This document shows, piece after piece, positions 38,583 to 40,249 of a DNA stretch of 64,000 nucleotides (positions are counted from its first letter, which is position 1; every line of letters starts with the position of its first letter). Source of the DNA: a phage. The position numbers were made by a program, and so were the translations under genes. The notes under the pieces are model-generated. The model worked only from the letters and a program-made list of their open reading frames with translations, was not told the DNA's origin and made no database searches. Where the stretch lies: sequence record PV467748.1, one strand, 5' to 3'.

Positions 38583-38984
38583 TTAACCCTCGTCTACAAT
38601 AGTATGGGTATTAGCATTAACAATCTGCCACCAGTCAAAACGATCGGAGCCGTAAAGAAACTTATTCTCGTTTTCTTTAACAATTTCACGTAGTTCATCT
38701 TCAGTGGCAGCTTTAGCGATTAAATCGGTATAGCCACCACGTGGATAGTAGTTATCACCCGCGAACAGAAGGAAATTTACTTTACCAGAAGGAACATATG
38801 CTTCCTTAGGATACTTGTTTCCTGCTTGGTCTACCACTTCAATATAACGGTAAGGAATATCAGTACTTTCAACCCATTGCCAAGCCGCAGCAGGGGATTC
38901 AAAAGCATCTACACCTAAACGGTTATCTTCATCTTTAGACGGATTATTTTCATAATCCGCATATACATAATATTCAACGTTCAT
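38583..38984 (-). CDS. hypothetical protein (133 aa)
   Basis: Track ORF. Confidence 0.45.
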   Translation of the reverse strand: MNVEYYVYADYENNPSKDEDNRLGVDAFESPAAAWQWVESTDIPYRYIEVVDQAGNKYPKEAYVPSGKVNFLLFAGDNYYPRGGYTDLIAKAATEDELREIVKENENKFLYGSDRFDWWQIVNANTHTIVDEG

Positions 38985-39169
38985 TATTCACCTTTAGAGA
39001 TTTTATCCATAACGAAAGAAATTGAACCAATTAAGAATGCCACTACTAAAGAAATTATATTCTCGGAAGTTGAAAGCATATCGAGCATGAATCCTGTAAA
39101 CATACTAAAGCCAAAAGCGGTAACAGCGGCCAGTGCAGTAACATTTCTAATTAATTCACAACGTTTCAT
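38984..39169 (-). CDS. small membrane protein (~61 aa)
   Basis: Track ORF 38984..39181 starts at TTG; trimmed to ATG (MKRCELIRNVTALAAVTAFGFSMFTGFMLDM...). Confidence 0.45.
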   Translation of the reverse strand: MKRCELIRNVTALAAVTAFGFSMFTGFMLDMLSTSENIISLVVAFLIGSISFVMDKISKGE

Positions 39170-39184
39170 TTTATTCTCCAATCA

Positions 39185-39236
39185 CTCATTTGTTTTGATA
39201 GGACTATAGTACCATCACTAAAGCCCGTTGTAAACA
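39185..39236 (-). promoter_or_regulatory. early promoter cassette variant (-35 GTTTAC, -10 TACTAT)
   Basis: Plus tcactcatttgttttgataggactatagtaccatcactaaagcccgttgtaaaca. Confidence 0.55.
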
Positions 39237-39237
39237 A

Positions 39238-39510
39238 TTATTTTAAATAAATTGCATATTTTTTATAACCAGCTGTCTCGTGGCGCAGCCCTTTTTCATT
39301 AGCAAAACGTTCAATATTATTGATTTGATTCTGGTCAAGTTCTGACGTGTCAAATACAAAAAAGTTTCGCTTGTTGCCTAAAGTTACATGATTAGTCAAA
39401 TCGATGTTATAGAGATGATTTATATTATCAATCATGGTCTTAACAGATTTGTTAATTTTTGCTTCTTCATTAAGAATAGATTCAGCGATAAATTCTTGAT
39501 AAGTTTTCAT
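39238..39510 (-). CDS. internal-protein-like gene with CTS (~91 aa)
   Basis: Track ORF 39238..39555 trimmed to ATG giving MKTYQEFIAESILNEE.... Confidence 0.55.
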   Translation of the reverse strand: MKTYQEFIAESILNEEAKINKSVKTMIDNINHLYNIDLTNHVTLGNKRNFFVFDTSELDQNQINNIERFANEKGLRHETAGYKKYAIYLK

Positions 39511-39519
39511 TTTGATTTC

Positions 39520-39578
39520 CGTGTGGTTGGTTTGTTTTGATAGGTCTATAGGCATGATACTATAGACCTTGTAAACAC
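39520..39578 (-). promoter_or_regulatory. early promoter cassette variant with internal palindrome aggtctatag/ctatagacct (-35 GTTTAC)
   Basis: Plus ttttgataggtctataggcatgatactatagaccttgtaaacacc. Confidence 0.5.
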
Positions 39579-39587
39579 CTTTTTAAA

Positions 39588-39797
39588 TTATTTTAGCCAT
39601 GAAGAATTTTCAGAGACCCAGCTATCTATATCTGATTGAGGGCCAAAGAAGTAGGCAACCCCATTAGATAGCTCTCCTGAAAGCCAATTTATACCTTTCA
39701 GGCTTTCTTTAAATTCTTCAGGAGTACAAGAAACCTCTATTGCCACCGAAGAGGCGGATTCCATTGCTTCTGTTAAGAATTCGCTGTAGGTTTTCAT
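39588..39797 (-). CDS. internal-protein-like gene with CTS (~69 aa; ipI position directly upstream of 57B)
   Basis: Track ORF 39588..39815 trimmed to ATG giving [17 protein letters not shown]...; its ATG overlaps the 57B stop (ATGA). Confidence 0.55.
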
Positions 39798-40249
39798 TTT
39801 AAATCCTCGGCCCAATCGAGCTTCAAGGGTTCTTTATATTCTCTGTCTAAAACAACAGGAATCTGGACATCTCCACTAAAGGTAAGAGGCCCTACATTAT
39901 AAGACAATGTGATATGAGGGGTATAATCATCGAAATCGTGCGTAGCACCTAAGGTACGAGCATACTGATGGCGGCATTTAAGATACTCTGAATTGAGGAC
40001 CAATACCAGGACAGGAGAATCACCATGTTTCCACACTTCAAGATGTCCTGACGAAGCAACTTCAAAACTTCCGGATGCAACGGTGTATGGAACGTTGACT
40101 CTTGAATAGCAGATTGTAGAATGGAATTTTTCACGAGGAACTGGATTAGGAACCTTTAAAGTGCGCTGAAGGTTTTCCAGCGCATCTAAAGTTAATTCAG
40201 AGAATTTTGCAGCAACGTATAGACCTTGAGCAAAATCTTCGGTTTTCAT
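39794..40249 (-). CDS. 57B: anti-CBASS cyclic-nucleotide phosphodiesterase Acb1 (gp57B, 2H-phosphoesterase fold)
   Basis: 151-aa track ORF with two H-x-T motifs (HSTICY and HITLSY); directly upstream of 57A as in T4. Confidence 0.75.

Follow-up and report, generated by a model that had tools for sequence, protein, structure and literature searches.

The stretch of DNA analysed here (64,000 nucleotides, sequence record PV467748.1, hereafter the window) comes from a Dhakavirus, i.e., a T-even phage resembling JS98, JS10 and IME281. The 3.5 kb around acb1 aligned over their full length, at approximately 94-95% identity, with the Dhakavirus genomes UP19, EcWhh-1, IME281, JS10 and JS98. The annotated gene order in JS10, IME281 and T4 is 4-2-3-1-57A-57B-internal protein (IP) gene(s)-trna.4-trna.3-trna.2-tRNAs, on a single strand, and the window has the order 3-1-57A-57B-IP-trna.4-trna.3-trna.2, as in T4 and JS10. 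The whole block, with every gene discussed below, lies on the minus strand. Its features are, from high to low coordinates:

40487..41248, minus strand: gene 1, dNMP kinase (Pfam DNMK, E 6.7e-90), the start of the tight 1-57A-57B-orf69 block
40249..40494, minus strand: gene 57A, tail-fibre chaperone (Pfam GP57, E 1.8e-28), directly upstream of acb1
39794..40249 (including the TGA stop), minus strand: acb1 (gene 57B), 151 aa, very probably an anti-CBASS 2H phosphoesterase (Pfam, PDB and orthologue comparison)
40106..40123, minus strand: first HxT motif of acb1, HSTICY, aa 43-48 (H43 and T45, equivalent to T4 H44 and T46)
39899..39916, minus strand: second HxT motif of acb1, HITLSY, aa 112-117 (H112 and T114, equivalent to T4 H113 and T115)
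39588..39797, minus strand: orf69, acidic protein of 69 aa with a capsid-targeting-type leader followed by AME (phrog_23867, E 1.2e-42)
39525..39585, minus strand: PeSL-type early-promoter/stem-loop cassette upstream of Ip9 (repeat families D2 and D5, cassette copies)
39238..39510, minus strand: Ip9, internal head protein of 90 aa with the leader MKTYQEFIAE followed by S (phrog_7673 'internal head protein', E 1.9e-55)
39206..39235, minus strand: early-type promoter upstream of trna.4, by consensus match (TTTACA, 17-nt spacer, TACTAT, with TG just upstream)
38984..39169, minus strand: trna.4 homologue, 61 aa, with two transmembrane helices predicted from hydropathy (phrog_1692)
38583..38984, minus strand: trna.3 (ORF)
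38292..38582, minus strand: trna.2 (ORF)

Genes 1 and 57A overlap by 8 nt, and 57A overlaps acb1 in the sequence TAATG. Since these genes are on the minus strand, those at lower coordinates (orf69, Ip9 and trna.4) are transcriptionally downstream of acb1. The first-pass annotation of this DNA had the IP-like and membrane genes upstream of acb1, and this orientation must be reversed.

The same annotation had taken the ORF at the 57B position, with its motifs HSTICY and HITLSY, to encode Acb1. This assignment is supported by profile, structure and orthologue comparisons. The Pfam profile of Acb1 (PF23474) matched the protein with 197.9 bits (cut-off 27, E 8.4e-59), from position 1 to position 144 of its 144 positions. 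The sole solved relative, the Acb1 of Erwinia phage FBB1 (PDB 7T26 and 7T27), was matched along query residues 9-148 (E 1.6e-58), and both HxT motifs of the solved chain 7T26_A are in register with those of the window protein. The FBB1 protein is a more distant orthologue. The proteins of JS10, JS98 and IME281 are 98-99% identical to that of the window and have the same flanking genes; two substitutions, S67 for T and N86 for D, distinguish the window protein from all three compared sequences. Searches of NCBIfam with Acb1, orf69, Ip9 and Trna.4 returned no match.

T4 57B was identified as Acb1 by Hobbs et al. 2022 (PMC9117128), who showed that the protein degrades cGAMP, cUA and cAAA and protects the phage from CBASS. 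In their work, the catalytic tetrad consists of H44, T46, H113 and T115, the nucleobases stack on Y12, W74, F107 and W147, E141 contacts the adenine, and the C-terminus forms a lid (PMC9117128). A family of 273 phage proteins was reported for Acb1 in 2022. The alignment with T4 Acb1 that the first-pass annotation had called for showed 85% identity over the full length (gp57B, NP_049750.1), with every catalytic and ligand-binding residue kept. The tetrad (H43, T45, H112 and T114 in the window) is invariant, the stacking residues are conserved as Y11, W73, F106 and W146, E140 is conserved at the position contacting the adenine N6, and the lid reads KLDWAEDLK instead of KLDWADDLK. The two genes also share their position after 57A. 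The differences are an N-terminus shorter by one residue in the window protein and scattered substitutions outside the active site. Judged by its sequence, the 57B protein of the window has the 2H phosphoesterase fold with a C-terminal lid. We consider it very probable that the ORF 40249..39794 is the Dhakavirus orthologue of T4 Acb1 (gp57B), in the described gene arrangement and with the described mechanism.

The public records of this group of phages label 57B either as 'RNA ligase' or as 'hypothetical protein'. If the first label were right, the protein would be a LigT-type 2'-5' RNA ligase or an RNA-repair enzyme rather than an anti-CBASS nuclease. The family matched by 57B in PHROGs (phrog_755) and the RefSeq records both carry this name, and LigT belongs to the same fold class (2H phosphoesterase). 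Yet, the corresponding Pfam profile, 2_5_RNA_ligase2 (PF13563), reached 13.8 bits on the window protein (E 0.062; cut-off 27), against 197.9 bits for Acb1, and it is the T4 protein, 85% identical, for which degradation of cyclic nucleotides and protection from CBASS were demonstrated (PMC9117128). An RNA ligase is thus extremely improbable here. The label looks like a superfamily name that was passed down from record to record, and Acb1 is the correct annotation. The acb1 of the window is in itself already known: it is a near-identical copy of the 57B genes of public Dhakavirus genomes, with all the Acb1 features that can be assessed in a sequence. Its carriage predicts resistance to CBASS whose cyclic oligonucleotide signals contain adenine and, according to PMC13577387, sensitivity to guard systems of the type II Panoptes class, a point to consider when Dhakavirus phages are chosen for therapy.

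By transfer from the Acb1 of T4 and FBB1, the window protein would be a compact, metal-independent 2H phosphoesterase. It would clamp the cyclic di- and trinucleotides of CBASS (3'3'-cGAMP, cUA, cAAA, cAAG) between the stacking aromatics and the C-terminal lid, and strain the adenosine in such a way that its 2'-OH can attack. The H-x-T/H-x-T tetrad would provide acid-base catalysis for a cut 3' of the adenosine, via a cyclic-phosphate intermediate, and the signal would be linearised before the effector is activated. It is by analogy with these orthologues that we infer the enzymatic activity of the window Acb1.

We could recognise no early promoter directly 5' of acb1. A search of positions 38900-42100 for MotA-box middle promoters and for exact late promoters (TATAAATA) found no exact late promoter, and nothing resembling a Mot site precedes acb1. 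The gene belongs to the conserved T-even block 1-57A-57B, with overlapping start and stop codons, and probably depends on read-through transcription from upstream: the lack of a recognisable promoter and the overlaps with 57A and between 57A and gene 1 suggest expression from upstream transcripts. As no promoter was recognised directly before it, calling it an 'early gene' goes beyond what the sequence shows, and a literature search on the expression class of T4 57B found nothing. Expression timing in this locus is inferred.

The arrangement downstream of acb1 differs from that of T4. In the latter, 57B is followed by an intergenic gap and ipI, whereas in the window the stop codon of 57B is overlapped by the leader-bearing gene of 69 codons. 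The ATG of orf69 and the TGA of acb1 overlap as ATGA (4 nt), with no intergenic space, and orf69 would be translationally coupled to acb1 through this overlap. The same 4-nt overlap is found in JS10 (as GTGA), in Merlin (Moonvirus) and in Gravdalen (Winklervirus). Coupling of the two genes extends to four T-even groups: Dhakavirus, Moonvirus, Winklervirus and phage EcS1, the last of which is listed by phage and not by genus. The gene is absent in LHE83 and T4.

Two IP-like genes had been reported next to acb1, and indeed the ORFs 39797..39588 (orf69) and 39510..39238 (Ip9) carry the leader of T4 internal proteins. Each starts with a MKTYQEFIAE-type leader whose last residues are (L/I)-x-E, as is characteristic of T-even IPs. 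This ending is the cleavage motif of the head protease, corresponding to the specificity of gp21. T4 IPII and IPIII both start with MKTYQEFIAE, and the leaders of the window are identical to it or nearly so. The leader pattern was present only five times in the six frames of the window, and all five instances sit at the start codon (ATG) of minus-strand ORFs, for a chance expectation of around 0.01 (a rough estimate). The three other ORFs, at 27308, 27789 and 37125, are a homologue of IPIII and two IP-like genes. The capsid-targeting sequence is the sole part common to the IPs of T-even phages, which are injected with the DNA (PMC3012670). The leader MKTYxEF(I/L)xE of orf69 and Ip9 would direct both proteins into the prohead core, where the head protease would cut after Glu10, and they would then be injected with the DNA.

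Ip9 is 77-81% identical to the proteins of this name in RB15, RB32, VR7 and VR25. With T4 IPI, IPII and IPIII and with the Ip9 of RB15 and RB32, both proteins share the type of leader and the locus between 57B and trna.4, which is one of two polymorphic IP loci. Beyond the leader, neither has sequence in common with T4 Ip1-3. Unlike Ip9, orf69 was never named an IP, and it belongs to a very small family of unknown function (phrog_23867). This family was found in 29 of 50,697 phage records and corresponds to five clusters among 5.8 billion proteins. A profile search with the orf69 alignment among 1.84 billion representatives retrieved five small proteins that are genuine relatives and carry the leader without exception, along with two long, low-scoring proteins, and it provided no link to a known family. 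An 836-aa match in which 16 short stretches are repeated (E 6.9e-14) was judged spurious, as a repeat protein. Pfam searches with orf69, Ip9 and Trna.4 gave no match. The AlphaFold2 models of orf69 and Ip9 (pLDDT of 80.1 and 78.8, respectively) had no match in the PDB at E <= 0.001 with Foldseek; the best ones, with E-values of 0.087-0.14, were unrelated small alpha/beta domains. Hence, no function can be deduced from these models.

The IP locus shows a rapid turnover of genes. When the window was aligned with IME281 and JS10, gene-sized differences appeared, bounded by a conserved cassette and by leader-coding sequence: IME281 has an extra IP of 74 aa between the cassette and Ip9, and in JS10 an unrelated IP of 97 aa replaces Ip9. 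In LHE83 the cassette directly follows acb1. These cassettes resemble the PeSL promoter/stem-loop cassettes known from T4-type phages (Arbiol et al. 2010, PMC2839356; Comeau et al. 2014, PMC4122927), which carry a conserved, dispersed early promoter (TTTACW-N17-TAYWAT) and, in some cases, a stem-loop. The cassette preceding Ip9 has a stable stem-loop, and cassettes lie at indel borders when the window is compared with its close relatives. Such modular shuffling has been described for PeSL cassettes (PMC4122927) and also for the IP locus (Repoila et al. 1994, cited by both PMC3012670 and PMC12373910), whose polymorphism has been known since 1994.

The first-pass annotation had regarded the genes adjacent to acb1 as a counter-defence neighbourhood. 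This is reasonable for the two genes with leaders, given the precedent of their class: the T4 proteins Ip1, Ip2 and Ip3 are inhibitors of GmrSD type IV restriction enzymes, with a separate enzyme as the target of each (PMC12373910). By analogy, Ip9 and orf69 are plausible candidate inhibitors of restriction-type defences. Nothing supports the extension of this idea to Trna.4. The small membrane protein that had been noticed is the 61-aa ORF 39169..38984, with two hydrophobic segments (around aa 10-29 and 37-55), and corresponds to the Trna.4 annotated in JS10, IME281, LHE83 and T4. A literature search on Trna.4 found nothing. Trna.2 appears in the literature only as a match in a DRT1 pull-down.

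The two leader-bearing proteins might instead have purely structural or DNA-ejection roles, or other tasks unrelated to defence, with the usual IP locus lying beside acb1 by ancestry. The order 57B-IP-trna.4 is indeed ancestral to T-even phages, so adjacency to acb1 carries no functional information, and neither Ip9 nor orf69 has a fold or family match to known inhibitors. Against this, all three T4 IPs of known function are defence inhibitors, and the fast turnover of genes at the locus is typical of arms-race loci. The predicted mature orf69 is acidic (pI around 4.1), a property that fits poorly with neutralising the charge of DNA. In this it differs from T4 IPI, whose full-length precursor is basic (pI 8.9), which counts against our main reading. 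We regard a role outside defence as possible for the two proteins, if somewhat unlikely. For orf69, the leader itself could be a relic of recombination, in which case the protein would be an unpackaged cytoplasmic accessory co-expressed with Acb1. On this reading the leader-coding DNA would serve as a site of crossover; the indel junctions of the locus lie inside the leader-coding repeat, and no record annotates orf69 as an internal protein. Yet, the leader MK(T/S)(Y/F)x(E/D)F(L/I/V)xE followed by AM(E/D) is kept in all members of the family, even in the protein of Merlin, which is 54% identical to that of the window and among the most divergent found. It was kept despite nucleotide changes, and with a GTG start in JS10, which argues for selection on the peptide and hence for a functional leader. 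That orf69 is such an unpackaged accessory seems to us quite improbable.

That orf69 is an unrecognised injected internal protein, perhaps a new inhibitor of a host defence in the immediate-early phase, is a reading that we put forward tentatively, as one that may well fail. If it were true, the target of orf69 might complement the evasion of CBASS, or be a modification-dependent nuclease acting on DNA of the Dhakavirus type. The IP locus is a documented hotspot of arms races, and screens of injected anti-defence proteins could reasonably include Ip9 and the family of orf69. Two points are mildly new in the window: the conserved coupling of acb1 to orf69, which may be an internal protein that has not been named so far, and the inversion of a loop in the cassette preceding Ip9.

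Each of the genes following acb1 had been described as having its own promoter cassette. This holds for Ip9 (around 39585..39525) and for trna.4 (around 39245..39185). It does not hold for orf69, which overlaps acb1 as ATGA. Ip9 would be expressed from behind its promoter/stem-loop cassette, and trna.4, which encodes the conserved two-helix membrane protein, from behind an early promoter of its own. The cassette, GT(T/G)TACA...TGATACTATAGACCTATCAA, is present eight times in the window. The promoter upstream of trna.4 agrees with the PeSL early consensus TTTACW-N17-TAYWAT, and its core, TACTATAGNCCTATCAAAACAAA, is common to seven other cassettes of the window.

Alone among the eight copies of the window, the one preceding Ip9 has an inverted hairpin loop. 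It has GTTTAC at 39576..39571 and a 10-bp hairpin at 39569..39542, with the loop at 39559..39552. The 8-nt loop is TATCATGC, and it reads GCATGATA or ACATGATA in eight copies from related genomes and in LHE83. The inverted loop may be a real inversion or an artefact of assembly. Within the phage collection, no record had the inverted allele in its context; exact-pattern scans of IMG/VR are uninformative in this respect, since reverse-complementing the hairpin, loop included, gives the other allele, and the orientation is set by the flanking sequence. The stability of the hairpin (-17 kcal/mol, z -5.3) is unchanged by the inversion. The extended -10 element TGATACTAT, present in all relatives examined, is thereby lost, and this distinguishes the Ip9 copy from the PeSL cassettes described in T4-type phages. 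What is left there is a weak alternative promoter, with TTTAAA and TATAGT separated by a 17-nt spacer (9 of the 12 consensus positions).

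The capsid-targeting leader, the N-terminal signal of the T-even internal proteins (IP), was not restricted to orf69, encoded 3' of acb1 (the anti-CBASS gene 57B), and to Ip9, the 90-aa internal head protein (39238-39510). It also occurs, as MKTY(K/N)EF(I/L)(A/T)E, at the start of three more ORFs of the window, which therefore encodes five candidate injected proteins. The three ORFs and orf69 are the following:

26712-27308, minus strand: IPIII homologue of 198 aa, with the capsid-targeting leader
27391-27789, minus strand: IP of 132 aa at the ipII position, with the capsid-targeting leader
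36661-37125, minus strand: IP-like gene of 154 aa just past the tRNA genes, with the capsid-targeting leader
39588-39797, minus strand: orf69, 69 aa, leader-bearing, in ATGA overlap with the acb1 stop codon (39794-39797)

The orf69 family is extremely narrow. The gene is absent from T4 and LHE83, and lacks annotation in JS98, JS10, and IME08. The 4-nt overlap with the acb1 stop is also kept in JS10 (as GTGA), in the Citrobacter phage Merlin, and in the Erwinia phage Gravdalen. The body of Ip9 (roughly aa 18-90, excluding the leader) has relatives with 33-52% identity in phages outside the T4 group, including E. coli phages of roughly 44-58 kb and Salmonella/Shigella phages of roughly 155-160 kb. 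Because of these relatives, the sequence comparison suggests that the Ip9 domain is a mobile module that gained its packaging leader in T-even phages.

The early-promoter cassette GT(T/G)TACA-N-TGATACTATAGACCTATCAA is present in eight dispersed copies, each upstream of small genes, and several of them include a stem-loop. These cassettes are PeSL elements in their Dhakavirus form.

39550, 39208, 35980, 30522, 26659, 24115, 19471, 14993, minus strand: cassette cores
39542-39569, minus strand: 10-bp hairpin with an 8-nt loop (39552-39559), part of the promoter cassette that precedes Ip9

We compared the loop of the Ip9 cassette with eight related copies, with LHE83, and with the same position in the other seven cassettes of the window. 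It is inverted, reading TATCATGC there versus GCATGATA or ACATGATA in all of these, and the inversion removes the extended -10 element TGATACTAT. The inverted allele, searched in its context, matched none of the records of 50,697 phage genomes. It could reflect either a real flip of the hairpin or an assembly artefact.

Other features of the window are the following:

37577-37733, minus strand: tRNA genes Arg-tct and Met-cat
38292-38582, minus strand: trna.2 homologue

The annotation of JS10 has three tRNA genes (Arg, Asn, Met) at the position where the window has only two. Pull-downs with the defence reverse transcriptase DRT1 enriched just two proteins of phage origin, and T4 Trna.2 was among them (PMC13275509). 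In gene 57A, positions 40250-40279 are a perfect tandem duplication of a 15-nt unit (TATTCTTCGTCAGAA twice, read on the plus strand), which encodes the repeated acidic C-terminal tail of gp57A, SDEEY SDEE.
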